From Candidatus Woesearchaeota archaeon (GTDB lineage Archaea; Nanobdellota; Nanobdellia; SCGC-AAA011-G17; JACPIM01): DNA of 34,897 bases. Shown piece by piece: positions 7,113 to 33,115 of this stretch (position 1 is the first letter of the stretch; each line of letters starts with the position of its first letter). Below the pieces are notes generated by a model. The model saw nothing but the letters and a program-made list of their open reading frames with translations. It was not told the DNA's origin and searched no databases. The stretch is from assembly GCA_964513145.1 (NCBI GenBank), contig CAZELK010000009.1, positions 1-34,897 of the forward strand, in the 5' to 3' direction. The position numbers and the translations under genes are program-made.

Positions 7113-7225
7113 TTTTCCGTTAACGCTTTTTCACAAAAAAGGGTTCTTTGGTTAAGCTTTTTCATTTTTCCGTGAACGCTTTTCGTAAAAGGGTTCTTTT
7201 AATGAAACTTTTTTCTAAAAAGCTT
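7113..7225. repeat. Head-to-tail cluster of ~4 palindromic mini-repeat units
   Basis: Units of form TTTT(G/C)NT(T/G/A)AA(G/A)CTTTT-N1-4-AAAAG(C/G/T)TT. 7113-7163 matches 33023-33073 at 50/51 nt. Confidence 0.85.
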
Positions 7226-7370
7226 CTTGACATCTTTTTATCCATTATTAGTCAAAGATAGTTTAGAGATTATATAAATATTATTAACTAAATTTTACAA
7301 CTATCTGTCAAGTTAAACATATATTTTTTGAGTTATTATTCATTTTTTCAGTATTTTTAGTAATGATTAT

Positions 7371-7421
7371 TGTTTTATTATAAAACAGAAAGATTTAAAT
7401 ATTGTTTTATATTAAAACAAT
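7371..7421 (+). promoter_or_regulatory. Two TGTTTTA-N3-TAAAACA palindromes flanking a TTTAAATA TATA box
   Basis: Perfect 7-3-7 inverted repeats at 7371-7387 and 7403-7419, TATA at ~7394-7401, ATG at 7423. Confidence 0.65.
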
Positions 7422-7422
7422 T

Positions 7423-8697
7423 ATGGATAACATTGAAAATGTATTTGAGGAATGGAATACTTACGCAGGAGACAGAGAACTCATAAGGAGAGATATAAAC
7501 CTTGAGATTATTAAATCCAATTCTGGGCTTAAAATAATATCAATTTCAGGTATAAGAAGATCTGGAAAAACTAGCATATTAATTATTTTACACAACTTAT
7601 TAAAAAAACAAAATGAAAAGGTTGCTTATATTAATCTTGAAGATAGCAGAATAAAAAATGATAAAGAAGTTCTTGATAAAATTATTAAATGGTTTGGTGA
7701 TAATGGATATCTTTTATTAGATGAAATTACAAGTGTTAATGATTGGGAAAGCTGGCTTTCAAGAAATCATGAAATGTTAAAAGGAAAACTAAAGATTATA
7801 GTCAGTTCATCAAGAAGCAACCTTGTCTTTCCAACAAAATCTTTGAGAGGAAGAATATTATCAAATGAACTATATCCATTATCTTTTAAAGAATTCTTGG
7901 ATTTCAAAAAATTTAAAATAGAAAAAACAACTGCTGGAATTGGAAAAATAGAAAGGCAATTAACTGAATATTTGGTCTATGGAGGGTTTCCTGAAACAGT
8001 TTTAATTGAAAATAATTTTGAAAAAATAAGGTTAATAGATTCATATTTCAAAGACATAATAAGCCTGGATGTTGCAGAAATTGCAAAAGAAAATCTTTCA
8101 ACAATAGAATTATTCGGAAAATATGTAATTGAATCAACTTATTTTTCAGCTTCAAAATGCTTAAACTTTTTTAAAAGTGCAGGATATAAAATAGCAAAAC
8201 AAACTTTGCTTAATACTGAAAAAAGCTCGCAAGAAGGATATCTTTTCTTTTTTATTTCTATTTATTCCAAAACAATAAAAGACAGGTCTCAGTATCCAAG
8301 AAAAGTATATTTAGGTGATACTGGATTCATGTATGCAATTTCTGGGAAAAAGGATTTAGGAAAATTGTATGAAAATGCAGTATTTTTAGAATTAAAAAGA
8401 AAACTAATTAATAATTCAGAAATAAATTATTGGAAAAATAAACAAGGCTCTGAAGTTGACTTTGTCATTAGAGAAGGGCTTAAGACTAATAAAATAATAC
8501 AAGTCTGCTATGATATCAACAATGAAAAAACTAAGCTAAGAGAAATTAAAGGAATTATTGCATGCTCAAAAGAACTTAAATCAAAAAAAGGATTAATTAT
8601 AACAAAAGATCTTGAAGAGGAAAAAATAGTTGAAAGTATAAAAATTAAGTTTATTCCTTTATGGAAATGGTTATTAGAAAACAAAGAGTTTGACTAG
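7423..8697 (+). CDS. AAA+ superfamily ATPase (COG1373; AAA_14 + DUF4143)
   Basis: Walker A GIRRSGKT, Walker B LLLDEI, YLVYGGFPE, KVYLGDTG, LYENAVF, YWKNKQGSEVDF (PD-(D/E)xK-like tail). ATG at 7423 preferred over TTG at 7402. Confidence 0.9.
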   Translation: MDNIENVFEEWNTYAGDRELIRRDINLEIIKSNSGLKIISISGIRRSGKTSILIILHNLLKKQNEKVAYINLEDSRIKNDKEVLDKIIKWFGDNGYLLLDEITSVNDWESWLSRNHEMLKGKLKIIVSSSRSNLVFPTKSLRGRILSNELYPLSFKEFLDFKKFKIEKTTAGIGKIERQLTEYLVYGGFPETVLIENNFEKIRLIDSYFKDIISLDVAEIAKENLSTIELFGKYVIESTYFSASKCLNFFKSAGYKIAKQTLLNTEKSSQEGYLFFFISIYSKTIKDRSQYPRKVYLGDTGFMYAISGKKDLGKLYENAVFLELKRKLINNSEINYWKNKQGSEVDFVIREGLKTNKIIQVCYDINNEKTKLREIKGIIACSKELKSKKGLIITKDLEEEKIVESIKIKFIPLWKWLLENKEFD

Positions 8698-8698
8698 G

Positions 8699-8808
8699 CT
8701 TTTTTTGGTTAAGCTTTTTCGTTTCTCCGTTAACGCTTTTCATAAAAGGTTCTTTGATTAAACTTTTCCTAAAATTTAGTTTTTGATTAAACTTTTTTTA
8801 AAAGTTTA
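8699..8808. repeat. Cluster of ~4 palindromic mini-repeat units filling a convergent intergenic gap
   Basis: ttttggttaagctttttc / ccgttaacgcttttcataaaaggtt / ctttgattaaacttttcctaaaattt / ttttgattaaactttttttaaaagttta; the cluster ends next to the TAG of 8809-10401. Confidence 0.85.
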
Positions 8809-10401
8809 CTATAGTGGCGTAATCATCCCATGAGCTTTCTTGTAAACATCATACAAAATTGAAGCCATGCTTTCTGCTTGTTTTTTTGCAGCACCCTTTT
8901 CATTGTCTTCCTGTTCTTTTGTTAAAGGTAAGGCTTTTGTGTCTGGTTTGGATTTTATATTAAGAATTTCTTTAAAACCTTCATAAACAGATTTGAATGG
9001 AACAAAAAGATTGTCTTGTTCTTTCTTCTCTTTTAAAAATTCAATCGCCCCGTCAACAGTTGCACTTTTTTTTAAAGCTTCAATTGCTTTGTCTTTTCCT
9101 ACTTTTGCTTTTTCCATAATAGAAATAACATCATCCTTGTTTACAGGAATGTTTTTTTCATCAGCTTCCTCTAAATATTTAAATAAAGAGTCTCCTAAAG
9201 ACTCTAAAGAAGCATTCAAGGAATTTAATAAGGCAAAATCTTCTTTTTCTAATTTATTTTTATAAGAACTAATTTCTTCTTGTGTTGCAACATACGCCTT
9301 GATAAAAACTTCTGTTCTTCCCATATGCACAGCCCCTCTTTGATATTCTTTTTGAAAAGACATTTCAGGCAATGCAACAAATCTTATTTTAACAAAAACA
9401 CATGGAAAGTATTTTTTAAATTCTCTGTCAACTTCAAAACCATTTGGTGTATTTTCAGTATAAGCAGTTCTTATCCCTAATAATTCAAGTTCTACCTTGC
9501 TTGTTTCAAAAGAACTGACTAAATGTGGGTCTTCAAATTTTTCATCATATCCCATTTGCAGCCTGGTTATATTCCTTAAATAAGGCTTCAGCCAGTTGAT
9601 ATACATCCTTATGACATTAAAATGCTGTCTTAAATATTTAAGTGTAAAATTTTTTCTGTCTCTTAATTCTTTTTCAGTTTTTTCCCTCCATACTAAAAAT
9701 TGTGCTAATTTTCTTGATAAAACCTCAAGAACTTTAATGTTAATCCCCTGCTTTTTCCAGGGCTCTAGCATCTTGCTGATGTCATTTTCTTTTTGTGGAT
9801 TAATTCTATAAAATAAATCTGGTAAAATGACAAAGCCAACCTGGCTAGCCAGTCCAGTGACAGATCCGGGATTTTTTGCTCCGCCTTCAACTAAATCTAT
9901 CCATACTGATTTCAATGCAACACTTAAAGAATCATCTTTTCTTTTGTAGCCATCATAATATTCCAGTCTTTCATCTAAAATTCTTAATTCTCTAATGATC
10001 TGAAATAAATCTTTTATCATTTTTCCTATAGTTGCTAAATAACCAGAAACTTTTTCCTGTTGAACAGATTTTCTTTGTTCTATGCTTCCCCAAAAACTGG
10101 AAGATTCTCCAGCAGAAAATATGTCTTTAAGTTTTTCAACCTTGCCTCTGTCACCGCTTAATCTTAAGCCGAAATCCTCCTTATTCTCCATAAACCTGAG
10201 AAACCAATAATAATTAGCCTCAACCCCGCTTCCAAAATTATCTATAATTAATCTATATCCCCCTTTAGGAACCTTGCCCTTAATCTCTTCTCCTAAAGGT
10301 TTAACTTCCTCTTTTTTTTCCTCTTCTTTTTTAAGACCTAAAAAATTATCTAAAATAGAGCCAAAGAATTTTGGTTTTTGTTGAGTAATTTGATCAGCCA
10401 T
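8809..10401 (-). CDS. Uncharacterised helical protein with a UBA-like insert
   Basis: Long ORF (~530 aa) with ordered motifs (EANYYWFLRFM, WIDLVEGGAKNPGSV, LKYLRQHF) and a UBA/NAC-C-like segment at ~9028-9150. Confidence 0.7.
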   Translation of the reverse strand: MADQITQQKPKFFGSILDNFLGLKKEEEKKEEVKPLGEEIKGKVPKGGYRLIIDNFGSGVEANYYWFLRFMENKEDFGLRLSGDRGKVEKLKDIFSAGESSSFWGSIEQRKSVQQEKVSGYLATIGKMIKDLFQIIRELRILDERLEYYDGYKRKDDSLSVALKSVWIDLVEGGAKNPGSVTGLASQVGFVILPDLFYRINPQKENDISKMLEPWKKQGINIKVLEVLSRKLAQFLVWREKTEKELRDRKNFTLKYLRQHFNVIRMYINWLKPYLRNITRLQMGYDEKFEDPHLVSSFETSKVELELLGIRTAYTENTPNGFEVDREFKKYFPCVFVKIRFVALPEMSFQKEYQRGAVHMGRTEVFIKAYVATQEEISSYKNKLEKEDFALLNSLNASLESLGDSLFKYLEEADEKNIPVNKDDVISIMEKAKVGKDKAIEALKKSATVDGAIEFLKEKKEQDNLFVPFKSVYEGFKEILNIKSKPDTKALPLTKEQEDNEKGAAKKQAESMASILYDVYKKAHGMITPL

Positions 10402-10456
10402 ATTCACCTTCTTTGCATAGAATTAAATATAACCTTGTTTTTAATTCTTTCTAAAA

Positions 10457-10825
10457 ATGTTGAAAAAATATCATTTAATAATCTTGGGCATAGTATTTAT
10501 AGACCAGATCTTAAAGTACTTCTTATCATTTAAAGTAAAAAACTATGGTGCTTCTTTCAGTATATTGCAAAACTATCCAGCCTTATTGACAATAATTTCA
10601 ATAATTGCTTTAATAGCCTTTATTCTTATATTTGTTAATTATCCGGAAGACAGGTTTTCTATGTCTTTTCTTATTGCAGGTACTTTAAGTAACTTAATTG
10701 ACAGAATCTTTTTAGGATATGTAGTTGATTATATTAGCTTGCCTTATTTATTTGCATTCAATATTGCAGATTTAGCAAACACAATTGGTGTCGTGATTTT
10801 AATGATAAAATTATTGAAAAAATAA
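10457..10825 (+). CDS. lspA: Signal peptidase II (lipoprotein signal peptidase)-like aspartic peptidase
   Basis: IDQILK, KNYGASFSIL, AGTLSNLIDR, GYVVDYI and FNIAD: all the conserved LspA blocks, with TM segments. Confidence 0.85.
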   Translation: MLKKYHLIILGIVFIDQILKYFLSFKVKNYGASFSILQNYPALLTIISIIALIAFILIFVNYPEDRFSMSFLIAGTLSNLIDRIFLGYVVDYISLPYLFAFNIADLANTIGVVILMIKLLKK

Positions 10826-10837
10826 TTAAAAAAAGAA

Positions 10838-10868
10838 AGCCCAATAAACAATTAATCTTTATTGGGCT
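10838..10868. terminator. 11-bp perfect hairpin between convergent genes
   Basis: AGCCCAATAAA-9 nt-TTTATTGGGCT between the lspA stop and the stop of 10889-13207. Confidence 0.55.
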
Positions 10869-10888
10869 GAATTTGGTGGAGCCAAAAA

Positions 10889-13207: not shown

Positions 13208-13268
13208 TAATTCACCTTAAATTATGTATAAAAATTTATATATATACTTATCGATTCCAAAATCCAAA

Positions 13269-14234: not shown

Positions 14235-14366
14235 AAATATAAATACTCAGAATTTATATGGCTTTATTATTTTGGCTTTCTCAAGAAGTCATTAGATAGA
14301 GTTTTATATAATTTTAGCTTGCACAAATATCAAAATTTCTGCACGAGAATAAATTAATATAATGAC

Positions 14367-15635: not shown

Positions 15636-16061
15636 TTATTTTCTTTTTGGAATAAAATTCATAAGAACACCATTTTTACAATATCCGCAACCCAAAAAAT
15701 CATCCTCATTTTTAACTATAACCCATCCTTTTTTATTTAAATCACATTCTAAATTACTTCCATTTAGCCATTCTTCTTTTTTATTGATTTCTAAAACATT
15801 TTTAGTTGCCTTGCTTCCAATTAACTGCGTTCCAGAAATGCTCAGTCTTATTCCGCTTTGTTCAATCTTGCCAAAATACAACCCAAAAGAATTTACATTA
15901 AACCTGCTTAAATCTACTTTAGCTAAATCCTTTGTAATCAAAAAAATTTTATTGTCTTTATTTTTATAAAATAAACAGTCTAATTCTAAAGTTTTTATGC
16001 CAAACTGATTTTTCAGTTGTTCTAAAATTGTTTTTGTTTCTCTATTATTTAGATTAATCAT
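15636..16061 (-). CDS. RsmF/NOL1-NOP2-associated PUA-like ribosome-biogenesis protein
   Basis: FGLYFGKI...IRLSISGTQLIG...WLNG...GWVIVK...LGCG...NFIPK resembles the stand-alone C-terminal domain of RsmF/YebU. Confidence 0.7.
   Translation of the reverse strand: MINLNNRETKTILEQLKNQFGIKTLELDCLFYKNKDNKIFLITKDLAKVDLSRFNVNSFGLYFGKIEQSGIRLSISGTQLIGSKATKNVLEINKKEEWLNGSNLECDLNKKGWVIVKNEDDFLGCGYCKNGVLMNFIPKRK
16026..16050. repeat. 25-bp direct repeat, copy 1 (copy 2 at 18788-18812)
   Basis: AATTGTTTTTGTTTCTCTATTATTT is identical at both sites; it encodes NNRETKTI on the minus strand. Confidence 0.8.
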
Positions 16062-17250
16062 TTAACAGCCATTTCCAAACAGGTATAATTTTTATATTAT
16101 TTAATCTGTCTTCCTGATTTAAAGTAATCATTATTCCATTATTAATTTTTAATTTAGACATGGCTTCTTTTATTCCATTAATTTCTCTCTCTTGATTTTC
16201 CTCATTAATTTCCAAACAAACTTGAATAGCTTGTATTGCTTTTCCCTTGTCTTTTATAATAAAATCGCACTCATTTTTCTCCCTGAAATAAAATATTTCT
16301 TTATGCTTCCTTCTTAAATTTAAAAAAACAATATTTTCAAGCATTTTTCCTTTATCATCTGAGAAAGAGACAGAATTAACATTGGAAAAACCATTGTCTA
16401 TAGAATAAACTTTTTTTGGATTGATTTGCTGTTGTTTATAGGAATAACTAAACCTGGGAATTGTAAATATTAAATAAGCATTTTCCAAATAAAAAATATA
16501 GTCTATAACACTTTGTACAGATTTTATTTTAAACATGTTTTTTATAGAATTATAAGAAAATTCCTTTCCAACATTGCTTATAAGAAAAATTGCAATTTTG
16601 ATCAGGATGCTAGTATTTTTTATTCCAAATCTTACTGCTATGTCTTTCATTATTACATCAGAAAGTAACTCATTGAGTATAGCTGGATTATTATTTTTTA
16701 AATATTCGGGAAATCCCCCCTTAACCAGATACTCTTCAATAAATTTAACTGATGGATTTTCATTTTTAAAACTCAGAAATTCTTTGAATGAAAATGGAAA
16801 TAATTCGCTTTGTAAATGTCTGCCCGTTAATTTCGTGCCAAGCTCTCTGCTTAAAAGCGAAGCATTTGAACCAGTTATAATAATCTTTTCTTTTTTATCA
16901 ACTAAATATCTGATAAATTTTTCCCATTTGTCAATATTTTGTATTTCATCAAAAAAATAAATACCATTTTCGCCATATAACTCTGTTATTATTACTTCTA
17001 CCTTGTTAAAATCAGTTAATTCAAATCCATCCAGTCTGGGATCCTCTAAATTTAAATAATACCAATTTTTTTGTTTTCTCGATATTTGATTTAAAAAAGT
17101 GCTTTTTCCGCATCTTCTTACTCCAGTTATCAAAACAGCGAAAGAATCAGATATCTCAATATTATTTTCTCTTAAAATTCCAAGATCCAAATTATTCAGA
17201 AATTCTCTTTGAGAGATTATTATTTCTTTTAAAATATCCTTTGAAATCAT
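16054..17250 (-). CDS. AAA+ superfamily ATPase (COG1373)
   Basis: GVRRCGKS, YFFDEIQ, ITGSNA, YLVKGGFPE, KVYSIDNG, LENIVF, ECDF, PVWKWLL. Confidence 0.9.
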   Translation of the reverse strand: MISKDILKEIIISQREFLNNLDLGILRENNIEISDSFAVLITGVRRCGKSTFLNQISRKQKNWYYLNLEDPRLDGFELTDFNKVEVIITELYGENGIYFFDEIQNIDKWEKFIRYLVDKKEKIIITGSNASLLSRELGTKLTGRHLQSELFPFSFKEFLSFKNENPSVKFIEEYLVKGGFPEYLKNNNPAILNELLSDVIMKDIAVRFGIKNTSILIKIAIFLISNVGKEFSYNSIKNMFKIKSVQSVIDYIFYLENAYLIFTIPRFSYSYKQQQINPKKVYSIDNGFSNVNSVSFSDDKGKMLENIVFLNLRRKHKEIFYFREKNECDFIIKDKGKAIQAIQVCLEINEENQEREINGIKEAMSKLKINNGIMITLNQEDRLNNIKIIPVWKWLLND

Positions 17251-17260: not shown

Positions 17261-17326
17261 ATTCATTCCCAATATATAAAAGTTTCTATTACCAATAGAA
17301 GAAAGTTTCTATTATAAATAGAAAGA
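17261..17326 (-). promoter_or_regulatory. TTCTATT-N3-AATAGAA palindromes at 23-bp period over the ATPase promoter
   Basis: Perfect copies at 17284-17300 and 17307-17323; degenerate copy at 17261-17277 overlapping the TTTATATA box. Confidence 0.65.
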
Positions 17327-17415
17327 AATTATGTCAAATAACCCGGCAAGAAAATATGCCAAGAATAGCTAAAAAATTCAAAAAAAGAAAAATTAGATAA
17401 TCACAGATATAATTT

Positions 17416-18630
17416 TCAAATTTTGTTTATTTCCTTTTCTACACTAAACATAGGTCTGAATTTTACTTCATTTTTCTCATCATAGAGTTTCTCTGAAAAA
17501 ATGAATTTTTGTTTTGGTTTGTATTTTTCAATAAAACTCAAAAAAGATTTTGTAAATTTGGGGGCTTTTAAGTCTGATTTGATTTCTATTGGGATTATAT
17601 TGCCTGATTTTTCCAAAATAAAATCAACTTCAGCCTTGGATTTTGTTCTCCAGTATTTTATATCAAAGCCCAGTTTTGCTATTTCAGAAGCAATAAAATT
17701 CTCATATAACATTGGTTTATCAGGTCTGTTCTTAAGATCCTGAAAATTCTTAATTATTATATTTCTAAAACCATTGTCCAAAAAGAATATTTTTGGGGTT
17801 TTCATAAGCTCCAGTCTTTTATTTGTATAAAAAGGCTGGCTTCTCAGGCATATAAAAGTTTTCTCAAGAATATTAATTTTATTTAATAAATCCTTATAAT
17901 TAAACCCAGTAATATTCGAAAGCTCATTGTAATTAATTGTGCTTCCTACTTGCAAAGCTAAGGCACTGGCCAGTTTGCTTATTTTATAATCATCCCGTAT
18001 ATTAAGTATTTCTCTTATTTCCTTCAGAAGATAAGTATTGTAAATATTTTTTAGAACTGTTTCTTTCTCTTTTTTGCTTTCACTCAATACAACCCTGGGA
18101 TAGCCCCCATATATGCAGAATTCTTCAAAATAAGAATAGATCTTTTCATTAATTATATCAGTTAATTTTTTATTAAGGTAAATATTATTATATAAAATTG
18201 GCTCTTTATAACCAAGATATTCTTCAAAAGAAAATGGATAAAGAGTAAATACAAAAATTCTTCCTACTAAATATTTTATGCTGTTTACACTTAAATCACT
18301 TGTAGAAGAACCAGAAATAATTATTTTTATGTTATAATTATCATAAATATACTTCAGATTTTTTCCGCCATTTTTAGAATACTGAAATTCGTCAATAAAT
18401 ATATAATCATTATTTTTTATATAAAGTTCTATAAATGATTTTAGATCTTCATTAAATAATTCCAGTATTTCTCTATCTTCAAAATTTAAAAAAACTGCCT
18501 TTTCAAGACCCTTAAATATAGAATTCATTAATGTTGTTTTTCCGCTCTGTCTAGGCCCGACTATTGCCATAATCTCCCTTTTATTTATGTACCTTCGAAG
18601 TTCCAATTCTAAAGTTCTTTTTATATACAT
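17416..18630 (-). CDS. AAA+ superfamily ATPase (COG1373)
   Basis: GPRQSGKT, IFIDEFQ, ISGSS, FCIYGGYPRV, KIFFLDNG, LYENFI, YWRTKSKAEVDF...PIEIK. Confidence 0.9.
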   Translation of the reverse strand: MYIKRTLELELRRYINKREIMAIVGPRQSGKTTLMNSIFKGLEKAVFLNFEDREILELFNEDLKSFIELYIKNNDYIFIDEFQYSKNGGKNLKYIYDNYNIKIIISGSSTSDLSVNSIKYLVGRIFVFTLYPFSFEEYLGYKEPILYNNIYLNKKLTDIINEKIYSYFEEFCIYGGYPRVVLSESKKEKETVLKNIYNTYLLKEIREILNIRDDYKISKLASALALQVGSTINYNELSNITGFNYKDLLNKINILEKTFICLRSQPFYTNKRLELMKTPKIFFLDNGFRNIIIKNFQDLKNRPDKPMLYENFIASEIAKLGFDIKYWRTKSKAEVDFILEKSGNIIPIEIKSDLKAPKFTKSFLSFIEKYKPKQKFIFSEKLYDEKNEVKFRPMFSVEKEINKI

Positions 18631-18708: not shown

Positions 18709-18754
18709 AGTTTCTATTACCAATAGAAGAAAACGTCTATTATAAATAGAAAGA
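18709..18754. repeat. 46-bp direct-repeat copy of the operator segment 17281-17326
   Basis: 43/46 nt identical, including both TTCTATT-N3-AATAGAA palindromes. Confidence 0.85.
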
Positions 18755-18787
18755 GCAATTATTAAAAAATCATGCCAGAATACAAAC

Positions 18788-18812: not shown

Positions 18813-18909
18813 AAGGCATTCATAAAAATCTATAACTTCGCTGGTTTTAAAACATTTTACAAAGCTTCTTGAAAGATAAATTAATAAATAAAATAAACAG
18901 AATAAATCT

Positions 18910-19214
18910 ATGGGTCTTTCAGATTTTCTTGAAAAAATAGGTGTGCTCGTTGAAGAAAATATATTGGGTTATAAAAAATTTAATGAGAATGATAGATATA
19001 TCAAAGCAATTTATGCTGCTTTGGCTGGGGCTGAAAAAGATTTAAGAAATTGGAATGAAACTATATATAGAGATGAGATTAGATCAAAAAAAAGCCAGAT
19101 GAGGAAAACTTGCCAAAAATAGTTAAGGCTATGAAAGAAGAAAAATTACAGTATAAAGTGAGTGTATTAAAAAAACTTAAAAAAGACATAAACAATATTT
19201 TAAGAGAATTCTAA
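18910..19214 (+). pseudogene. Paralog of 3978-4280 interrupted by a frameshift in an A8 run
   Basis: The reading frame shifts at A8 (19086-19093). The shifted frame gives KPDEENLPKIVKAMKEEKLQYKVSVLKKLKKDINNILREF*, matching the paralog's C-terminus. Confidence 0.8.
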
Positions 19215-19216
19215 TG

Positions 19217-20214: not shown

Positions 20215-21357
20215 TTAAAAAGCCTCAGCCAGTTTAATACATACTCCATTTAGTTCATTATTGTTTTCATTTGATTCTGTAACAGTATTGTTTGCGTCTA
20301 CTCTCAAATTCAAACAATATTGTCCATATCTAGGAAATATTCCACTATATAACGCTATAGATAATTTATCTGTCGTAAAAGACTTAGTTTCTCCAGGCAA
20401 ATAAGTATTTGGTTCCGGCGGAATTGTCGAAAAGACCACCCCATTAGTTAGAACTAAATAAGTAAAAATTTTACTTTTACTAATACTACTTGCAGAACCT
20501 AAACCTTGATTTTTGATTTCATAAACTACCCTAAGGTAAGGAGGATTGGTAACTCCATAATATATTCTATTAAGGTCTAAACGAATTGTTGTCGAAGTAA
20601 CGTCATTTCCTTTATCGTCTATAAATTTGGCACTCTGTACTACAAGATCTGGCATTGTGCAGGTTCGTGATTCCTCAGGTTTTCCAGTAGTTGTTCTGCA
20701 ATTATTTCTGTTAGTGCATGTTCTTGTTTGACTTCCTGATGATGAACAAGTAACCCAATCTGAACATTGCCAGTCTGGAGTGCAAGGTCCTCGAGAAGTT
20801 ATGCTGCATGATTGTGTTTCAGCAGGTTTTCCTGTATTTACACCACAATTATTTCCATCTGTGCATGTTCTTGTTTGTTGTCTTCCTCCTCCAAATAATC
20901 TATTGCAACTGCTCCAAGCAGAACATTGCCAGTTTGTAGCACATGTTGGTGGTATGCAGCTTTGTGTTTCAGCAGGTTTCCCCGTATTTACACCGCAATT
21001 ATTTCCATCTGTACATGTTCTTGTTTGTTGTCTTGATGAAGGGCAAGTAGATGGGTTCCAATCAGAACATTGCCAGTTTGACGTGCAAGAAGCTATGCAT
21101 TGATCATAACAATTTTGATTAAGTAATGGTAGATAATCACAAACAGTTCTTCTGCTAAAAAATCTTCCAACACTTCTGCAATTAGTTCGCACAGGATGCG
21201 CATAATCTGTACATTGTTGTGTGCATTGATTAGCTGTTACTTGTCCTGTAAAACTTTCAGTATTAACTGAACTTGTATCAACAATATCAAAAGAAACTAG
21301 AGATATAAATAAAATTAAAATTGCACCGAAAATAAATAAGCTCTCTTTATTTATCAT
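20215..21357 (-). CDS. Exported Cys-rich protein with three TSP1-like repeats and a C-terminal CARDB domain
   Basis: ATG 21357 with GAGGTG RBS; N-terminal TM; three W-Q-C-S-x-W...QTRTC repeats; PDLVV...EIKNQG...VDANNTVTESNENNN. DNA 20813-20884 matches 20963-21034 at 68/72 nt. Confidence 0.8.
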   Translation of the reverse strand: MINKESLFIFGAILILFISLVSFDIVDTSSVNTESFTGQVTANQCTQQCTDYAHPVRTNCRSVGRFFSRRTVCDYLPLLNQNCYDQCIASCTSNWQCSDWNPSTCPSSRQQTRTCTDGNNCGVNTGKPAETQSCIPPTCATNWQCSAWSSCNRLFGGGRQQTRTCTDGNNCGVNTGKPAETQSCSITSRGPCTPDWQCSDWVTCSSSGSQTRTCTNRNNCRTTTGKPEESRTCTMPDLVVQSAKFIDDKGNDVTSTTIRLDLNRIYYGVTNPPYLRVVYEIKNQGLGSASSISKSKIFTYLVLTNGVVFSTIPPEPNTYLPGETKSFTTDKLSIALYSGIFPRYGQYCLNLRVDANNTVTESNENNNELNGVCIKLAEAF

Positions 21358-21474
21358 AAAATATAAACACCTCTCATATAAAAGATAAATTTTGCTATAT
21401 ATATATATTGTTATAACTAAAAAATAATAAAAATTCTTAGTTAACTTTAAAAATTCATTAATTAACCTTAGCTT

Positions 21475-23118
21475 ATGCATAATATAATATTAAAGTACGC
21501 CCTGCAGAACGCAGTAAAATATGAAGGCAAAGCCAACTTAAACGCAGTAATAGGAAAAGTATTCTCAGAAGTAAAAAATATAGATAAAAATAAAATAATT
21601 GAAGAAGCTAAAAAAATAATCAATGAAGTTAATTCTTTAAATTTAAATCAGCAAATTTCAAAATTAAATGAAATTGCCCCGGAATTGTTGGAATATAAAA
21701 AAGAAGAAAAAGAAAGGCAGATTCCAGACTTGGAAAATGCAGTAATGAAAAAAGTAATAATGAGAGTAGCCCCAAATCCAAATGGTCCTTTATCATTGGG
21801 AAGAACAAGGCCTTCTTATTGGAATTATGTAATATCAAAAAAATACAGTGGTAAATTCTACCTGCGTTTCGATGATACAGACCCGAAAACAAAAGTCCCA
21901 ATAAAGGAAGCTTACAAATGGATCATAGAAGATTTAAAATTTTTAAATATTAAACCTAATAAAATAATAATTCAGTCAAAAAGATTAAAAATTTATTATA
22001 ATTATGCTGAACAATTAATAAAAAAAGATCTGGCTTATGTCTGTAATTGTAATATAGAAGAATGGCGTAAATTAATACAAAAATCTATGGAATGCAAATG
22101 CAGGTCTTTGCCAGTAAAAGAACAACTGGAAAGATGGAAAAATATGTTTAATAAATACAAAGAAGGTCAGGCTGTCTTAAGAATAAAAACAGATATTGAT
22201 GCCCCGGATCCTGCAGTTAGAGACTGGCCAGCATTCAGAATAATAAATAAATCATTGCACCCGTTAAATAAAAAAGCAAAAGTATGGCCATTATTGAATT
22301 TCGCATCTGCAATTGATGATTATGAATTAAAAGTTACCCACATTTTAAGAGGTATAGACTTAAAAGTTTCTGATGTAAGGCAGAATTATATTTATAAATA
22401 TTTCAACTGGACATATCCAAAAACAATGTATCATGGAAAATTATTAGTCCAAGGTATTAAAAGTACATCTCAGACTAAAAAATTAATCAATGAAGGAAAA
22501 TTAAGTGGCTGGGATGACCCGAGATTAGGAACAATAAAATCATTAAAAAGGCGTGGTTTCAGGCCAGAAGCTATAAAAAAATTTCATAAAGAAATTGGCT
22601 TGACTAAATCAGACATTAACGTCTCTATAGATACATTGGCTGCTTTTAACAGGGAGATAATAGATAAAGAAGCAAACAGGTATTTTTTTATAGAAAATCC
22701 TAAAAAAATAATTATTAAAAATGCACCAAAATTAAACATAAAAATAGATCTCCATCCTGACTTTCCGAAAAAAGGTTCCAGGAAATTTAGAACAAATGAT
22801 GAATTTTACATAGAGGAAAATATAGAAAATAATAAATTTTACAGATTAATGCATTTGTTTAATTTCAAAAACAATGAATTCAATTCAATAGAATTAAACA
22901 AGGATTTAAACGCAAAATTGATTCATTGGCTTCCTGTTTCTAAAGATTTAATAAATATAGAAATAATAATGTCAGATAATTCAATAATAAAAGGTCTCGC
23001 AGAGCCTTCAGTAAAAAAACTCAAAGTAAATCAAATGGCACAATTGGAAAGAAAATTCTTCGTAAGATTGGATAAAAAAGAAAAGGAGAAATTAGTATTT
23101 TATTACTCGCACAGATAA
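21475..23118 (+). CDS. gltX: Glutamyl-tRNA synthetase (archaeal type)
   Basis: RVAPNPNG, LRFDDTDP, AYVCNC/CKCR, DPAVRD, VWPLLNFA, THILRG, GWDDPRLGTI, RRGFRPEAI. Confidence 0.95.
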   Translation: MHNIILKYALQNAVKYEGKANLNAVIGKVFSEVKNIDKNKIIEEAKKIINEVNSLNLNQQISKLNEIAPELLEYKKEEKERQIPDLENAVMKKVIMRVAPNPNGPLSLGRTRPSYWNYVISKKYSGKFYLRFDDTDPKTKVPIKEAYKWIIEDLKFLNIKPNKIIIQSKRLKIYYNYAEQLIKKDLAYVCNCNIEEWRKLIQKSMECKCRSLPVKEQLERWKNMFNKYKEGQAVLRIKTDIDAPDPAVRDWPAFRIINKSLHPLNKKAKVWPLLNFASAIDDYELKVTHILRGIDLKVSDVRQNYIYKYFNWTYPKTMYHGKLLVQGIKSTSQTKKLINEGKLSGWDDPRLGTIKSLKRRGFRPEAIKKFHKEIGLTKSDINVSIDTLAAFNREIIDKEANRYFFIENPKKIIIKNAPKLNIKIDLHPDFPKKGSRKFRTNDEFYIEENIENNKFYRLMHLFNFKNNEFNSIELNKDLNAKLIHWLPVSKDLINIEIIMSDNSIIKGLAEPSVKKLKVNQMAQLERKFFVRLDKKEKEKLVFYYSHR

Positions 23119-26468: not shown

Positions 26469-26511
26469 ATGTAATTAACAGATTTTAAAGTTTTTAAGAG
26501 TTTTGGTCTGC

Positions 26512-26563
26512 TTTAAACAAAATGGAACTACGCAATATGAATAACACCGCGACTCGAAGTTTC
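26512..26563. repeat. att-like duplicate of the tRNA-Ser 3' end plus trailer
   Basis: 48/52 nt identical to 27325-27376; the core 26519-26556 matches 27332-27369 at 37/38 nt. Confidence 0.85.
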
Positions 26564-26657
26564 CTATCATGTCGAGTAACTGGGATTTTAGTATGTAAAA
26601 GTTCTGAACTTAGAAATTCAATAAGATATATAAATAATTGTAATTTATTTTTTATTA

Positions 26658-26921
26658 ATGTATGAAATAGTAACTAAAAGTAGGAAAGCTGAAAAGCAAT
26701 ATTATGAAGCTCTTCAATCAAATTCAACCATATCAGAAAAATTAGAAAAACTAAAAGAAAATCCAAGAGATTGTTTAGATGCTCATAAATTAAAAGGAAA
26801 ATTAGCTGGTTTGTGGAGTTGTTGGTTAGGCTCTGATCTAAGAATAGTTTACAGAATTAATGATGAAACAAAAGAAATTATAGTTTTTTCAGTAGGAACT
26901 CATAAAGAAGTTTATAGATGA
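26658..26921 (+). CDS. RelE/YoeB-family toxin (intact)
   Basis: LKENP...AHKLKGKLAGLWSCWLGSDLRIVYRI...IIVFSVGTHKEVY. Confidence 0.85.
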   Translation: MYEIVTKSRKAEKQYYEALQSNSTISEKLEKLKENPRDCLDAHKLKGKLAGLWSCWLGSDLRIVYRINDETKEIIVFSVGTHKEVYR

Positions 26922-27082
26922 GTTTTAAGTTTCCAGCTCTTCACTCCCTTTTTTTCAGCTTCTTTACTTTCTTTTATAGCTTCCATCATTTCTGGATCTC
27001 TAAGTATACCGACTTCTTCTAAAAGTTCTTCATATTCTTTTTTTGGTATTCTAACCATTTCTTGCATTTCTTGTTTTGCCAT
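26912..27082 (-). CDS. Minimal YefM/Phd-like antitoxin (56 aa), not in the ORF track
   Basis: MAKQEMQEMVRIPKKEYEELLEEVGILRDPEMMEAIKESKEAEKKGVKSWKLKTHL*; overlaps the toxin 3' end by 10 nt. Its upstream region resembles that of 26316-26468. Confidence 0.75.
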   Translation of the reverse strand: MAKQEMQEMVRIPKKEYEELLEEVGILRDPEMMEAIKESKEAEKKGVKSWKLKTHL

Positions 27083-27371
27083 AAGTTTATATAGATTTCA
27101 ACATTTTTAACCTTTTTGGTCAAATTTTAAGAAATTACTTTGTTGTTATAATATCTTCTAAATTTACGGAAAATTCTTCTTATTTGTTTAAACCCAGTTC
27201 CTTCATTAATTTTATTTGTTCTAGTTCTGTCATTCTTATTTCTGGCTTTTCATCTTCTATATAATGATCAATCTATTCTTTTTTTAATTTCTGAACCATA
27301 CAATATGCATAGTTCTGCTTACTATTTAAATAAAATGGAACTACGCAATATGAATAACGCCGCGACTCGGA

Positions 27372-27420
27372 CTTTCAATAACTTTTAACGTTTTTGATAA
27401 AACTTTTTTTAAAAGTTTTC
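27372..27420 (-). other. tRNA intron 3 (49 nt, T-loop 59/60)
   Basis: Central helix TTCA/TGAA and bulges AA|G and AG|T; contains an AAAACTTTT-AAA-AAAAGTTTT hairpin. Confidence 0.88.
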
Positions 27421-27451
27421 TTTGAACCGAGAGGCCTTGTTAGGCCTGGCT

Positions 27452-27493
27452 TCCTTGAATATTATTTTTGCTTAAGCTTTTTCTAAAAGCTTA
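27452..27493 (-). other. tRNA intron 2 (42 nt, canonical 37/38)
   Basis: Central helix CTTG/CAAG and bulges AG|T and GA|A; contains a TAAGCTTTT-AGA-AAAAGCTTA hairpin. Confidence 0.9.
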
Positions 27494-27510
27494 CTCAAGG
27501 CCAGTGCAAT

Positions 27511-27560
27511 CTCCTGTAAAATTTTTAGTTTTTTGCTTAAGCTTTTTCTAAAAAGCTTAT
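27511..27560 (-). other. tRNA intron 1 (50 nt, D-loop 20/21)
   Basis: BHB with central helix CCTG/CAGG and bulges GT|A and AG|A; contains a TAAGCTTTTT-AG-AAAAAGCTTA hairpin. Confidence 0.88.
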
Positions 27561-27605
27561 ACCAGGTTATGCGATCGCGGCATTAATAAAAAAGAAGTTC
27601 TTCAA

Positions 27606-27613
27606 TTTATAAA
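27606..27613 (-). promoter_or_regulatory. TATA box of the tRNA-Ser gene
   Basis: TTTATAAA 25-32 nt upstream of the tRNA 5' G, with an A-rich BRE-like segment upstream. Confidence 0.7.
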
Positions 27614-27614
27614 C

Positions 27615-28772: not shown

Positions 28773-28808
28773 AAAACTAAAATCCAAAGTGAATTTATAA
28801 AGTTTTTT

Positions 28809-28858
28809 AAAATAAAAAATAAAACAAATAAATAAAAGAAAAAAAGAGTTTTTAACTC
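28809..28858 (-). terminator. Short hairpin plus long U-tract downstream of the S-layer gene
   Basis: GAGTT-AAA-AACTC followed by TTTTTTTCTTTTATTTATTTGTTTTATTTTTT on the minus strand. Confidence 0.6.
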
Positions 28859-28870
28859 AATTTTTAATAG

Positions 28871-28897
28871 TTTTGATAAAACTTTTAAAAAGTTTTA
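28871..28897. repeat. Single palindromic mini-repeat unit overlapping the S-layer stop codon
   Basis: TTTTGATAAAACTTTTAAAAAGTTTTA; nearly identical to the unit in tRNA intron 3 (27391-27419). Confidence 0.8.
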
Positions 28898-31219
28898 TGC
28901 ACTTCTGCTCTTCACAGATGGCGAGCTTACAGTACCAGTTAAAGTTACTTGAGCACCACTTAATTTGTAGTCCTCAAAGTCACTGAATACTTTGGTTGCC
29001 ATTCTTGTATCAGCAGCATCTGTACCAGCTATTAACAATGCAACTTTATCGCCATTGCTTGCTAGTTTAAGCATTGCTTCACCTGGAGCTAATGGCCATT
29101 CGCCGCATTTAACACCTAAAGCTGATACCCTTTCAACTAAAGGATCTGCACAAGGTCCGCCAACTAAGATTAAGCTAAATGCTGTTGGATCACTTACTTC
29201 TGTATCTTTCAATGTGTTAACAGTTATCTTTGCTGGAATATAAGTTACTCCACCACCTGATACTGTTGCAGCTGATCCCTTGACAACTACATTAGCTTGT
29301 ACTTGGTCACCAGGTATTTCTAAAACTACTTTGTCTGAAGCACCATTGCTCTTAGGGTCTCTTACTATAATACCATATTTTGTTCTGTGGTCTTCATCTT
29401 TAGTACCTAATTGTGTAAAAGATAAAGAACCATTTTTCTGCCAGTGTAATTCTCCAGCTTCTTCTTTTGAAGCAGTTGCTCCTAAAGAAGACCAGTTACC
29501 ACTAGCTACTGTAAAGTTCATCATTAAGTCATCTGTAGTTGCATCCAATTCAGTAGATGAATCTCCCCTAGTCCAGACATGTAGTGTGTAGTTAGATAAG
29601 GAAGTTCCTAATGTAAATGGAGCTTCATCATTACCACTAGCACCTGTACTAAAATTAAATCTTACATTATTGTCTTTAGTTCCCAGGAAATTCATTCTCA
29701 AAAACTGGGCTCTGCTTGTATTGGAAATATTCAATGCTCCCAAATATTTTACATTAGGGTTTGCATTAACATCTCTGTAGAATATATCTAATTCTCTGGC
29801 TACTGCCCCTACAGTTCCGCCAGATGTTCCAGTACTTGCAACAGCTAACCATACTTCACTTGTCTTAATATCATTGTTATTTAAAGTTCCATTTGAATTT
29901 ACTTGTGGTAAAGTTCCTGGAATAACAAATCTTTCATCACCAGGTGCATGTATATAAATTGCACTTGTACTTGAGCCAGCTCTTGCTAATTTTGATTTTG
30001 CTGTATCTGCACTGCTTTGGTATTCAATTGTAACTGTCAAATAATCTGTATCAGGTACAGTTAAGCTGTCAAAGCATATTTCAGCATAATTATTAGGCAA
30101 TGTATAACATTCACCTAAGCCAGCTGGGTTGTCTGTGTTGTCATCTTTTATAAAGTCATTTTGAATACCTATAAATGGACCTGTTGGATCACTTTCACCA
30201 CTTGAAATAGTGGTTGAAGCCAAAGCCCCTAAATTACCTAATTTCCATGTCCAGTCTGGGTTATTCTTGTTCTGACCTACATAAGCATCTCCATCAGCAA
30301 AAGTATCTTGTGCATTCTTTCCTACAATTAAAGAAGCTGATCTTTCTGATTTTGATGTTGCATAGAATGTATTATCATTCTTTACTTCAATGCCATTTAC
30401 AATTTTGCTTGAATCTGATGCAATAGTATCAACTTTTCCATCAACATCAACCAAAATAGCACCACTGCTGCCTACATTTTGTAAAGTAACTTTCTTGCCT
30501 TCAACTGTTACTACATCTCCTACTTTCATAAAGTATTCTGTTCCAACAGTTGCAGTAAATTTGGTTTGGCTTGTGTCTACGCTTGTAACTTTTAAGGTCT
30601 TGCCTAAAAATTTAATTTCCAAAGGTTCTGAAGCAGTTGCTTTAGAAACATTTAATTGGTCATCAAATACATAATAATATTTAATAGCACCCTTTGCTGT
30701 TTCTAAATATACATTGCTTTCATAATCATCATCTGAACTAGTTAAACTAGTTTCTATAGATGGTGAAGTTTTAAGCAAAACTAATTCATCATGTGTATCA
30801 ACATCTTCATCTACAAAATTTATTGACCCTTTAAAAAAACTATTAATATCTGTTTTTTCCAAAGAATAATCTAAAGCTACTGATGTCGAGTTTGCTATAC
30901 CTAAATCAATAGGAACATCTTCAGTAACTCCACCAGTTACAGTAACTGCTCCTGCAGAACTTACTGGGGTTTTAGATAAAAATTGCAATTTTGCTGTTAC
31001 ATCCCCTACACCTAATATATCTGAAACGTCTGCTTTACTTCCAACAACAAGAGCCGTGTCTTGACTGAATACACCCTCTTTCGAAACAAATGGCTGTGGA
31101 AGATTAGCCAAATCTAAACTTGCTGCTTGTGCGACCGCACCTGTGACTGTTGCTCCTAACATCGCAACACCAACACCTAAAGCAGCCACTCTTCTAATGG
31201 CTTGTTTTAGTCTTTGCAT
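28895..31219 (-). CDS. S-layer protein (Methanococcus-type S_layer_N/S_layer_C architecture)
   Basis: ATG 31219 with GGAGGTG RBS; signal RRVAALGVGVAMLGAT; PQPFV...LVVGSKA..SD; C-terminal LILVGGP..DPL...LLIAGTD..DTR; many sequons. Confidence 0.9.
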   Translation of the reverse strand: MQRLKQAIRRVAALGVGVAMLGATVTGAVAQAASLDLANLPQPFVSKEGVFSQDTALVVGSKADVSDILGVGDVTAKLQFLSKTPVSSAGAVTVTGGVTEDVPIDLGIANSTSVALDYSLEKTDINSFFKGSINFVDEDVDTHDELVLLKTSPSIETSLTSSDDDYESNVYLETAKGAIKYYYVFDDQLNVSKATASEPLEIKFLGKTLKVTSVDTSQTKFTATVGTEYFMKVGDVVTVEGKKVTLQNVGSSGAILVDVDGKVDTIASDSSKIVNGIEVKNDNTFYATSKSERSASLIVGKNAQDTFADGDAYVGQNKNNPDWTWKLGNLGALASTTISSGESDPTGPFIGIQNDFIKDDNTDNPAGLGECYTLPNNYAEICFDSLTVPDTDYLTVTIEYQSSADTAKSKLARAGSSTSAIYIHAPGDERFVIPGTLPQVNSNGTLNNNDIKTSEVWLAVASTGTSGGTVGAVARELDIFYRDVNANPNVKYLGALNISNTSRAQFLRMNFLGTKDNNVRFNFSTGASGNDEAPFTLGTSLSNYTLHVWTRGDSSTELDATTDDLMMNFTVASGNWSSLGATASKEEAGELHWQKNGSLSFTQLGTKDEDHRTKYGIIVRDPKSNGASDKVVLEIPGDQVQANVVVKGSAATVSGGGVTYIPAKITVNTLKDTEVSDPTAFSLILVGGPCADPLVERVSALGVKCGEWPLAPGEAMLKLASNGDKVALLIAGTDAADTRMATKVFSDFEDYKLSGAQVTLTGTVSSPSVKSRSA

Positions 31220-31334
31220 TAATAAACACCTCCGTGTCAACTCAATATATTTTATTAATATTTCAATAATCTTTTTTAGCGAAACTTTTCAAGTCTCTTA
31301 GATTATTTTAATTATAGAATTTTAAGTTATTATT

Positions 31335-31344
31335 TATTTATAAA
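31335..31344 (-). promoter_or_regulatory. Probable S-layer TATA box (long leader)
   Basis: TTTATAAATA about 120 nt upstream of the start codon. Confidence 0.45.
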
Positions 31345-31465
31345 CATTTATACACTCTAGAAGATATATTTTAGTAAAATCCTTAAAATACAGGGCTTAT
31401 GAACCTAATGCATAAAGAATTTAATGTTTAAACAAAAAAATAATATTACTACTAATAAATAATAA

Positions 31466-31903
31466 TTAACATAACTTAATCATTGCAACAAAAGTTATAG
31501 TTTCTTTTTTAAACCTGTATGGGCTGCTTTGAATGCCTTTCGAACATTTTCCTTCTTTAAAAAATTCAAAGGAATCTGTGCTTAATTTAAATTCAAAATT
31601 TTTATTTCCAGAACTTAATGTAATAATTTTATTCAATTCTTTTGTTAATTTCATGCAGCTGATTTCTTGGGAAACTCCTTTTTTTACTCCAGTATAGCAT
31701 TCATAAATTAAATCCTTTACATCAATCTTGCTTTTTTCTTTAATAATCGCATTCAAAAGATTATTGGCAATCAAACTTGATCTTATATCATCCTTAGTAT
31801 CATCAGTATTAAAACTAAACCTTAAGGCAACTACTAAAATTATGACTAATAAAACTACCAATACTGCTAGTCCTATTATTTCAACCTGTCCTTTTTTGTT
31901 CAT
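31466..31903 (-). CDS. Type IV pilin-like protein (class III signal peptide)
   Basis: MNKKG|QVEIIGLAVLVVLLVIILVVAL. Confidence 0.75.
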   Translation of the reverse strand: MNKKGQVEIIGLAVLVVLLVIILVVALRFSFNTDDTKDDIRSSLIANNLLNAIIKEKSKIDVKDLIYECYTGVKKGVSQEISCMKLTKELNKIITLSSGNKNFEFKLSTDSFEFFKEGKCSKGIQSSPYRFKKETITFVAMIKLC

Positions 31904-32160
31904 AAATATAGCATTCTCCAAAAATTTGATAATTCAACCCAAAACAAATTAGTAACACCGTATTTTCTTTTATATTCTTCAGGAATTTTATCTTTAGCAA
32001 TTGGCTCACCATAATGTGGATTTGCTTTGATTAATTCTTTTTTCTTATCAATTGAGTTAAGGATACTTCTTTCAATTTTAGAGTCAACTGCAAGAGTATT
32101 CAATTCTTTGTACGCTTCTTCAGCCTCAAAAGAAAGAACAACTTTAACAATTTTATTCAT
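31900..32160 (-). pseudogene. C-terminally truncated RelE-like toxin
   Basis: NPHYGEPI...LFWVELSNFWRMLY stops at the R-x-x-Y strand and lacks the final strands and the H..Y motif seen in 26658-26921. Confidence 0.6.
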
Positions 32161-32429
32161 AATTCAAGACCCTTGGTAATTGCATTTCTCATACTTATAT
32201 TTGTATTATGAATCCATGAAATTCCTTTTAACGATACTACAATTTTATTGCTTTGTTCAAGATATTCAAGAATGATCATTAATGTATTGTGGTTAACTTG
32301 TTTTGGTAGTTTTCTTTTTAGTTCAGCAATTGTAATTATACTTTCATTAATATTTTTAAGAGCATTTTCTACCATAAGAACAGTATTCAATGTTGGGGAA
32401 TGTTCTAATACTTCCATTTTAGTCACCAT
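32157..32429 (-). CDS. Winged-HTH-like putative antitoxin/regulator
   Basis: PTLNTVLMVE...ITIAELKRKLPKQVNHNTL..ILEYLEQSNKI...GISW; ATGA overlap with the toxin-like gene. Confidence 0.6.
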   Translation of the reverse strand: MVTKMEVLEHSPTLNTVLMVENALKNINESIITIAELKRKLPKQVNHNTLMIILEYLEQSNKIVVSLKGISWIHNTNISMRNAITKGLEL

Positions 32430-32482
32430 TTGTTATTAAATAATACCTATTAAGTATTAACTTATATATAAATATTTCCAAT

Positions 32483-33019
32483 TTAATCTGCACCTTGTAT
32501 TTTTAATAACCCAATCCTGAATTCATTTAAGTTGGCAAAATACAAAGAAACTGGCAAACTTACACTATATGTTGCTTCTTTTTTGTCTAAAGCATCATAA
32601 ACTATAATAAAACCACAATTTTCTGGAAAAGAAACTTGTTGAAGCTTATCCAAAGTGCATTCTGTATTTTTAGCTTCATTTTTTACTTCTGGATAAATAA
32701 ATTGAATAATAATTTTTTTAGTTTTGAATTTATTTAAATAATAAGCCTTATTTTCCTTCATTATTTCTTTTAAAGCAAATAACTTAATCACATCCAGGCA
32801 ATCATCATTTTCGCATTTTGTCTCAGGAAGATACCCAAAAGAATGAAGTAAAATTAAATTGTCAGTGTCTGTTATTTGGTTTCCTAAACTATCCAAACCC
32901 CTTGCAAAAAATTTATAATAAGCAAATATGCCTCCGACAATTAAAAATATAATTATCAATAAAACAAGCAAGGTTTCTCCTATTTCAACCTGTCCTTTTT
33001 TATAAAATATATCTTTCAT
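32483..33019 (-). CDS. Type IV pilin-like protein (class III signal peptide)
   Basis: KKG|QVEIGETLLVLLIIIFLIVGGIF; Cys pairs in the globular part. Confidence 0.75.
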   Translation of the reverse strand: MKDIFYKKGQVEIGETLLVLLIIIFLIVGGIFAYYKFFARGLDSLGNQITDTDNLILLHSFGYLPETKCENDDCLDVIKLFALKEIMKENKAYYLNKFKTKKIIIQFIYPEVKNEAKNTECTLDKLQQVSFPENCGFIIVYDALDKKEATYSVSLPVSLYFANLNEFRIGLLKIQGAD

Positions 33020-33021
33020 AG

Positions 33022-33115
33022 TTTTTCCGTGAACGCTTTTTCACAAAAAAGGGTTCTTTGGTTAAGCTTTTTCTTAAAATTAGTTTTTCCATTAAAGCTT
33101 TTTTCAAAAGGTTTA
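33022..33115. repeat. Cluster of 3 palindromic mini-repeat units filling an intra-operon gap
   Basis: Begins at the TAA of 33113-33982 and ends ~2 nt before ATG 33019; 50/51 nt identical to 7113-7163. Confidence 0.85.

Follow-up and report, generated by a model that had tools for sequence, protein, structure and literature searches.

Introduction

Among the closest described counterparts of the sequence considered here are the REP (repetitive extragenic palindromic), BIME and REPIN repeats of bacteria, which are mobilized by RAYT (Y1 HUH) transposases. The sequence is a hairpin-plus-tail repeat of 28–33 nt (hereafter the unit), found in a 34,897-nt stretch of DNA (the window) from a Candidatus Woesearchaeota archaeon. 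The window is the complete contig C9 (CAZELK010000009.1, assembly GCA_964513145.1) of genome G000 (977,603 bp in 18 contigs, 29% GC, 98.8% complete), and the public sequencing runs that contain this genome are groundwater metagenomes, with no RNA run listed among them. Similar to the bacterial repeats, the units are imperfect palindromes of ~30 nt with conserved flanking bases that are extragenic, present in many copies, and located at gene 3′-ends and inside operons; they also share the arrays, the lineage-specific copy number, and the combination of conserved stems and variable loops. They differ from the REP/RAYT system in that the host is an archaeon and the cognate RAYT gene is absent from its genus (PF01797, searched in G000 and its congeners G001–G003), and in that their arrays run head-to-tail rather than as inverted doublets. 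In addition, they start exactly at stop codons, lie in tRNA introns, and are near-identical across phyla and domains.

Elements of the IS200/IS605 family and their miniature derivatives, the palindrome-associated transposable elements (PATEs), are likewise hairpin-based and possibly strand-polar, and units lie physically within the TnpB elements of G000. However, the unit is present there as an insertion, in the right-end loop and at the tnpB stop codon, and unit-rich congeners contain neither TnpB nor TnpA. The palindromic elements of Rickettsia and other small palindromic insertions, which are ~100–150 nt long and read through in frame, share with the units their small size, their palindromic form, and their persistence at sites tolerable to the host, the interior of RNA and protein genes among them, whereas the units are 30 nt long and kept out of coding sequence.

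With regard to tRNA genes, transposed introns have been described in the Thermoproteales, in which one genome can hold related introns at differing positions and in distinct tRNAs (Fujishima et al., 2010; PMC4090602; 10.64898/2026.10.13.758758). The units share this feature; in the part of the Thermoproteales literature that was searched, however, similarity is reported among tRNA introns only, whereas the present sequence recurs between genes and at gene ends as well, and within each intron accounts for the 5′ part alone. A census of Asgard tRNA introns (2026 preprint) found no general route by which introns arrive and leaves the matter open (10.64898/2026.10.13.758758), and full-text literature searches, of incomplete coverage, brought up no account of an intergenic repeat that is found in tRNA introns too. 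Here, a single 30-nt module can be traced in introns, gene ends, and mobile-element RNA. The reading that we prefer, with a probability of roughly 0.55, is that a widespread hairpin-plus-tail repeat family spreads and turns over, survives in dispensable transcribed stretches, and enters introns that already exist.

Structure of the Unit

The unit has a four-part layout: a 5′ arm that reads (T/G)AA-X and ends in a T-run; a free loop of 0–6 nt; a 3′ arm in which an A-run precedes the reverse complement of X and then TT(A/C); and a tail made up of A-X′, an A-run, and C. A TAAGC...TAAGC direct repeat lies within the unit itself, and the CC/GG variants do not conserve it. The minus strand of the window carries 13 full units, together with two half-units from which the 5′ arm is missing, and no clean unit was found on the plus strand (Table 1); the motif occurs singly or head-to-tail in one orientation, as the original prediction, made from the window alone, had stated. 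A strict form of the pattern matches five times in the window, compared with 0.00 expected from 100 dinucleotide shuffles. In the whole of G000, a hidden Markov model built from the 13 window units gives 66 non-overlapping matches of at least 11 bits, and an independent pattern gives 54 matches versus one for a reversed-pattern control, so that the copy number is not at chance level. A generic scan for perfect AAN-stem hairpins added little.

The stems and the tail are conserved among copies, and the loops are distinct in nearly every copy. Among 190 parsed units, a set that over-represents one subtype used to fetch many of the loci, the closing stem pair covaries (T:A in 134 and G:C in 21), and the inner stem pairs show compensatory switches (GC:GC, AC:GT, GCC:GGC, and ACC:GGT). 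The 3′ arm is, moreover, complementary to the tail about a TTAA center (GCTTAAGC, CGTTAACG, CCTTAAGG, GGCTTAAGCC). The covariation of stem pairs beside freely varying loops suggests that something reads the hairpin.

Table 1. Units, arrays, and the interrupted tRNA gene in the window
Feature	Position	Strand	Remarks
tRNA-Ser(UGA) gene	27358..27581	-	three bulge-helix-bulge introns (predicted): D-loop, 37/38, T-loop
D-loop intron	27511..27560	-	50 nt; B1 unit 27529-27559 plus exon-complementary tail ending CAGGAG
37/38 intron (canonical)	27452..27493	-	42 nt; opens with UAAGC of the unit (unit 27465-27493); tail CAAG pairs with anticodon-loop CUUG
T-loop intron	27372..27420	-	49 nt; unit 27391-27419 plus tail with UUGAA pairing with UUCAA
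Full units	33084-33114, 33057-33083, 33022-33055, 28871-28896, 27529-27559, 27465-27493, 27391-27419	-	
Further full units	8780-8808, 8753-8778, 8722-8752, 7197-7226, 7165-7195, 7113-7145	-	
Half-units	7147-7163, 8699-8720	-	5′ arm absent
Array	7113..7226	-	three units and one half-unit, upstream of gene 4519-6999
Array	8699..8808	-	three units and one half-unit between convergent genes; begins right after TAG 8809-8811
Array	33022..33115	-	three head-to-tail units that take up the whole space from gene 33113-33982 to gene 32483-33019; stop codon supplied by the first TAA
Single unit	28871..28897	-	TAA of the unit is the stop codon of S-layer-like gene 28895-31240
Degenerate unit-like hairpin	3925..3951	-	AACCCTTTTCATAAAAGAATTAATAAA; matches the loose pattern only; uncertain member

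Distribution Among Genomes, Phyla, and Domains

Unit counts are 54–108 per genome in four genomes of genus g1, 66 in G008, and 62–71 in G019 and G047; a few other lineages contain 10–26 units, and most of 150 genomes of the order, sister genera included, contain 0–5. The exact B1 unit, the subtype located in the D-loop intron (Table 1), is present in >114 contigs of species-representative genomes, which belong to Woesearchaeota, Aenigmatarchaeota, Nanoarchaeota, Nanohaloarchaeota, Methanosarcina, and metagenome-assembled genomes of Clostridia. In Aenigmatarchaeota with genomes of 50% GC, it opens the 37/38 intron of tRNA-Leu. A close variant is found in complete plasmids of cultured Komagataeibacter, which argues against the notion that the copies outside DPANN are artefacts of assembly or binning. 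One such copy, a near-perfect unit of the form GAAGC...GCTTCACCAAAAAC in Komagataeibacter saccharivorans plasmid NZ_CP036407.1 (57371–57412), lies in an unannotated spacer next to a tyrosine recombinase gene; the host is a cultured acetic acid bacterium.

Carriage by viruses was considered and rejected, as the exact B1 unit is present in only 1 of the 2.9 million contigs of IMG/VR. This contig, which is virus-like and 13 kb long (IMGVR_UViG_3300038312_000228), carries at least six units, at several times the density seen in G000. It encodes a SegE-like GIY-YIG nuclease, an ERCC4/HhH nuclease, and a TFIIB-ribbon protein.

Units in tRNA Introns

Neither ARAGORN nor Rfam calls a tRNA in the window as it stands. 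An acceptor stem, GCCGCGA/UCGCGGC, can be drawn at positions 27581–27358 of the minus strand, and in-silico removal of three intervening segments yields an 83-nt cloverleaf that ARAGORN calls as tRNA-Ser(tga), which agrees with the earlier placement of units in three tRNA introns. The three interruptions are predicted to be archaeal bulge-helix-bulge (BHB) introns, the hallmarks of which are a 4-bp helix flanked by two 3-nt bulges at the exon-intron borders and a cloverleaf that is restored on removal; each has a 4-bp helix between the exon and the intron 3′-end, and the helices, as read from the sequence, are CCUG/CAGG, CUUG/CAAG, and UUCAA/UUGAA. Each intron comprises a unit that begins at intron base 1 or 2, followed by an exon-specific tail of 10–20 nt. 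The genome encodes one EndA homolog. In the whole of G000, default ARAGORN finds eight tRNA genes and the Rfam tRNA model gives 26 partly truncated matches; standard tRNA finders miss genes of this kind, and annotations of such archaea thus understate their tRNA sets. At least eight tRNA genes of G000 bear units in introns, 5′ leaders, or 3′ trailers. A tRNA-Ala gene at C3:57145–57426, in the rRNA spacer just past the 16S 3′-end, contains two introns, one of which holds a reverse-oriented unit-like hairpin.

Orthologs of tRNA-Ser(UGA) contain three introns in genus g1, only the 37/38 intron in G005 and G008, and no 37/38 intron in G007; the comparison is unrooted with respect to the direction of gain or loss. 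The intron positions agree across genera, and the interiors differ. The 3′ part of the splice motif lies outside the unit and the same positions carry different units in relatives, and the units therefore read as colonizers rather than creators of introns. On the same two grounds, the original proposal that the repeat explains the origin of tRNA introns is not borne out.

The last ~12 nt of tRNA-Ser and ~40 nt downstream (27325–27376) are repeated, at 92% identity, 813 bp away at 26512–26563. Between the two copies lies a small island containing gene pairs that resemble, by eye, antitoxins and toxins (YefM/Phd-like and RelE/ParE-like), and the arrangement resembles an att scar left when an element integrated at the tRNA 3′-end; G008 has this 3′ flank once.

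Turnover at Orthologous Sites

Filled and empty sites are both found among relatives. The end of the S-layer gene carries a unit in G000 and G001, and is empty in G002, in which only TAAGCAAAAAA is left; the G002 site looks as if the hairpin had been lost between the TAAGC repeats. The array at 8699–8808 is absent behind the orthologous gene in G001–G003, with only TAATCAAAAAA retained in G002. The gap at 33 kb of the window contains three units in G000, and one unit plus a different hairpin in the congeners. Among population contigs, the copy number of this array varies, with back-joints (33073→33022) by which a 51-nt doublet is gained, and T-runs differ in length; as noticed in the original prediction, two distant clusters (7113–7163 and 33023–33073) are identical at 50 of 51 positions (98%).

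Two units are inserted in the TnpB element on contig C7, the first at the tnpB stop codon and the second inside the right-end hairpin loop, in the omega-RNA region, and a 70%-identical homolog in G008 has neither insertion; a broken TnpB copy on contig C1 holds one further tandem unit. G000 contains four intact IS605-type TnpB genes and a broken one (C7:19128–20324, C12:5546–6628, C7:13956–14984, C1:67979–69073, and C1:189794–190245), and two of the five copies hold units within the omega-RNA/right-end region.

At the DNA level, the family both multiplies and undergoes turnover, and these comparisons support the view that the units are a dispersed repeat family, some arrays of which are specific to G000. 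The earlier description of the unit as a recently active REP/MITE-like element (MITE, miniature inverted-repeat transposable element) thus stands in part: filled and empty sites, array variation, and lineage bursts bear out a dispersed family that turns over, whereas the lack of Y1/RAYT genes, the lack of a clear target-site duplication, and the head-to-tail arrays do not favor membership in either class. The refuting condition set out with that description, a lack of empty alleles at orthologous sites, did not hold.

Units persist almost only where they are transcribed yet dispensable, namely, at or after stop codons, in operon spacers, in tRNA introns, leaders, and trailers, and in the omega-RNA/right-end loop of TnpB elements; a tolerance of units after stop codons and in introns was anticipated from the window, and leaders and trailers can be added to it. 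In tRNA genes, the unit occupies the interior of the predicted BHB introns from the first base, with the exon-specific 3′ tail supplying the splice motif; in the reading given in the Introduction, it would enter pre-existing introns rather than create them. Hairpins are lost precisely, apparently by slippage, leaving the tail behind, and arrays lengthen or shorten through tandem duplication. A conserved machinery that recognizes the hairpin and tail would hold stems and tail constant while loops drift, and selection would leave copies only in dispensable transcribed segments. A recognizing machinery that is very widely shared is indicated by the phase lock to stop codons described below and by covariation at two levels, of stem with stem and of 3′ arm with tail. 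Sister species offer filled as well as empty sites, and the unit recurs across phyla, so that the remodeling of introns, and possibly their gain, can be tested directly by comparative genomics and RNA sequencing.

Stop Codons and a Possible Function in RNA

All three stop-codon sites expected in the window were found: TAG 8809–8811 adjoins the unit start TAAAC, and TAA 28895–28897 and TAA 33113–33115 are themselves the first three bases of a unit. The gaps at 8698–8808 and 33020–33112 are taken up nearly wholly by arrays, again as foreseen. Across G000, at least 17 open reading frame (ORF) stops sit 4–8 nt ahead of the T-run of a unit, that is, each is either the TAA of the unit or the codon immediately preceding; in units without the initial TAA, the reading frame continues to an in-frame TAG in the loop. 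The native stop is retained in three congener comparisons, and units inside operons occur as spacers after stop codons. The host genes at stop codons include those for S13, S4, RpoD, L13, the S-layer protein, SecD/F, aCPSF1, Kae1, ArgRS, surface proteins, and TnpB. No general consensus was found after the stop codons of the genome, and tail-only motifs at stop codons are not enriched (1 versus 2.1 expected).

Several observations sit uneasily with the reading of a spreading, tolerated repeat. The phase lock is far tighter than survival at any harmless site predicts, with at least 17 of 40 loci in phase versus ~3 expected, the latter being a rough estimate for units landing on random non-coding T[AG]A and no formal test. 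Most units run in the sense direction of the transcript that holds them. Across the genus, units keep their position in the ribosomal-protein operon spacers and at the 33-kb site; in the S13/S4 and S4/S11 spacers, a unit is present at the stop in four of four congeners, with four different subtypes, and is reversed in G002. Loops are distinct in nearly all copies while stems and tail are conserved, which implies that most copies are old and under selection rather than recent. Finally, no enzyme could be linked to the units when Y1 HUH, TnpB, RVT_1, and GIY-YIG genes were compared with unit abundance, and there is no clear target-site duplication and no terminal inverted repeat beyond the hairpin itself.

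The pattern of loop and stem conservation, the conserved position with its phase lock, and the sense orientation fit a role in RNA at least as well. The unit would then be a functional RNA module: a hairpin at the stop codon or between cistrons, read by a conserved RNA-binding protein, that stabilizes or processes the upstream mRNA or tunes its coupling to the next gene, and that within introns forms the capping stem (h′) or gives the excised intron a handle, its spread being secondary. This is the main rival, kept alive by the phase lock, the occupancy of ribosomal-protein operons, and the sense orientation. The compensatory stem changes at the S13/S4, S4/S11, and 33-kb sites, and the housing of units by genes such as those for S13, S4, RpoD, L13, the S-layer protein, aCPSF1, Kae1, and ArgRS, are in line with it, as is the virus-like contig, in which two units are arranged in the order stop, unit, Shine-Dalgarno, start; the TGAGC...GCTCA variant of the unit uses TGA as stop. 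However, only ~2% of genes bear a unit, and the 0–5 units of most genomes of the order imply that no essential conserved role is involved. Orthologous genes manage without the unit at the S-layer end and at the array 8699–8808, the S-layer gene of G000 keeps its own hairpin and T7 run, a terminator-like site, past the unit, and some copies in tRNA leaders and introns, as well as one in an operon spacer, are reverse-oriented. On balance, an RNA function is a possible account of the family, although clearly a less probable one than a repeat that spreads and is tolerated.

Search for a Mobilizing Enzyme

The absence of transposase, integrase, and reverse transcriptase from the window was upheld, as no such domain, DDE transposases included, was found in the 22 larger ORFs tested. 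The check proposed with it, for a Y1 HUH or reverse transcriptase gene flanked by the unit, met with no success: Y1_Tnp (PF01797) has no match in G000 or G001–G003, all of which are unit-rich, and RVT_1 (PF00078) has none in G000. Among 40 relatives, 11 contain Y1 genes, and their occurrence is unrelated to unit counts. Y1 HUH, TnpB, RVT_1, and GIY-YIG proteins were each set aside as candidate enzymes because none tracks unit abundance, and "REP/MITE" is thus an analogy only. A MITE was rejected on the grounds that the sole inverted repeat is the hairpin itself and that no clear target-site duplication is present, and an identity with the ends of IS200/IS605 elements or PATEs was rejected because the left- and right-end hairpins of the five TnpB copies differ from the unit and are GC-richer.

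A movement as single-stranded DNA would nevertheless be conceivable if a Y1 HUH enzyme (RAYT or IS200/IS605 TnpA) acted in trans on a REP/PATE-type element, with the tail and the stem foot as cleavage/guide pair. The imperfect stem and the 3′ arm/tail covariation around TTAA resemble such guide/cleavage-site pairing, units lie within IS605-type TnpB elements, and Y1 genes are available in some relatives. The strand runs of G000 could be counted here too: they are longer than under a gene-strand null (6 switches in 41 loci versus 13.7±2.7 expected, P ~0.003), and on a contig with cdc6 near its start, every unit points away from cdc6, which hints at a strand lock in G000. No strand runs were seen, however, in another DPANN genome with 36 units (G155), and the complete chromosome G154 contains too few copies for such a count; a strand lock is therefore at most partial. 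The lack of any Y1_Tnp match in a genome that is 98.8% complete and in three unit-rich congeners, together with unit counts that do not follow Y1 or TnpB presence and with TnpB-element ends of different sequence, makes this route improbable.

Units as a Possible but Unlikely Source of Introns

It is tempting to speculate that the unit seeds new tRNA-type introns. It would be a mobile seed that lands, at the DNA or RNA level, at stop codons and in those loops of strongly transcribed RNA genes that lie exposed, and a short inverted copy of the flank, arising along with it, would let the tRNA-splicing endonuclease excise it as a BHB intron. One route that would fit the sites is that excised intron RNA is ligated into RNA breaks, such as those in loops or ribosomal A-site cuts at stops, and is copied back into DNA. 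Every unit-bearing intron begins with the unit at base 1–2, intron presence varies at all three tRNA-Ser positions among genera, and the 3′-end of each intron, as read from the sequence, repeats the flanking 5′ exon in short, inverted form, as would be expected of such a process; the Asgard preprint leaves room for it (10.64898/2026.10.13.758758). On the other hand, the 3′ part of the splice motif is exon-specific and lies beyond the unit, the unit subtypes at matching positions are unrelated from genus to genus, for which one old intron with a changing interior is the simplest explanation, the direction of gain and loss is unrooted, and G000 has no reverse transcriptase by PF00078. Seeding is therefore an unlikely alternative to the entry of units into existing introns; if true, it would provide a visible source of intron gain across DPANN and perhaps other archaea.

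Other Identities Considered

Simpler identities can be dismissed briefly: a type III toxin-antitoxin (ToxI-like) array of ~36-nt repeats, by the lack of a ToxN-family Pfam match in the genes downstream of the arrays (32483–33019 has no Pfam match and 4519–6999 only Transglut_core) and the fact that most units are single or in introns; a promoter, by a core (CTTAAGC / GTTCACGG) unlike the canonical TTTAWATA boxes located ~25–35 nt upstream of real tRNA genes in G000 and a varying distance to start codons; and a terminator, by a hairpin followed by an A-run instead of a T-run, the separate hairpin and T7 run of the S-layer gene, and the harm that T5 would do in tRNA introns. No known RNA family was found at units in the window or at the bacterial and Methanosarcina loci.

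Other Features of the Window

Three paralogous AAA_14/DUF4143 ATPase genes are located at 7402–8697, 16054–17250, and 17416–18630. The first has unit arrays on both flanks and shows no synteny in congeners, and the other two are preceded by a 72-nt repeat (17281–17352 and 18709–18780). Two stretches of ~330 bp (3952–4280 and 18884–19214) are 74–80% identical and contain small paralogous ORFs (3978–4280 and 18910–19122). The gene for a CARDB-domain surface protein (20215–21480) includes three tandem repeats of ~150 bp, 74–91% identical, at 20658–21089.

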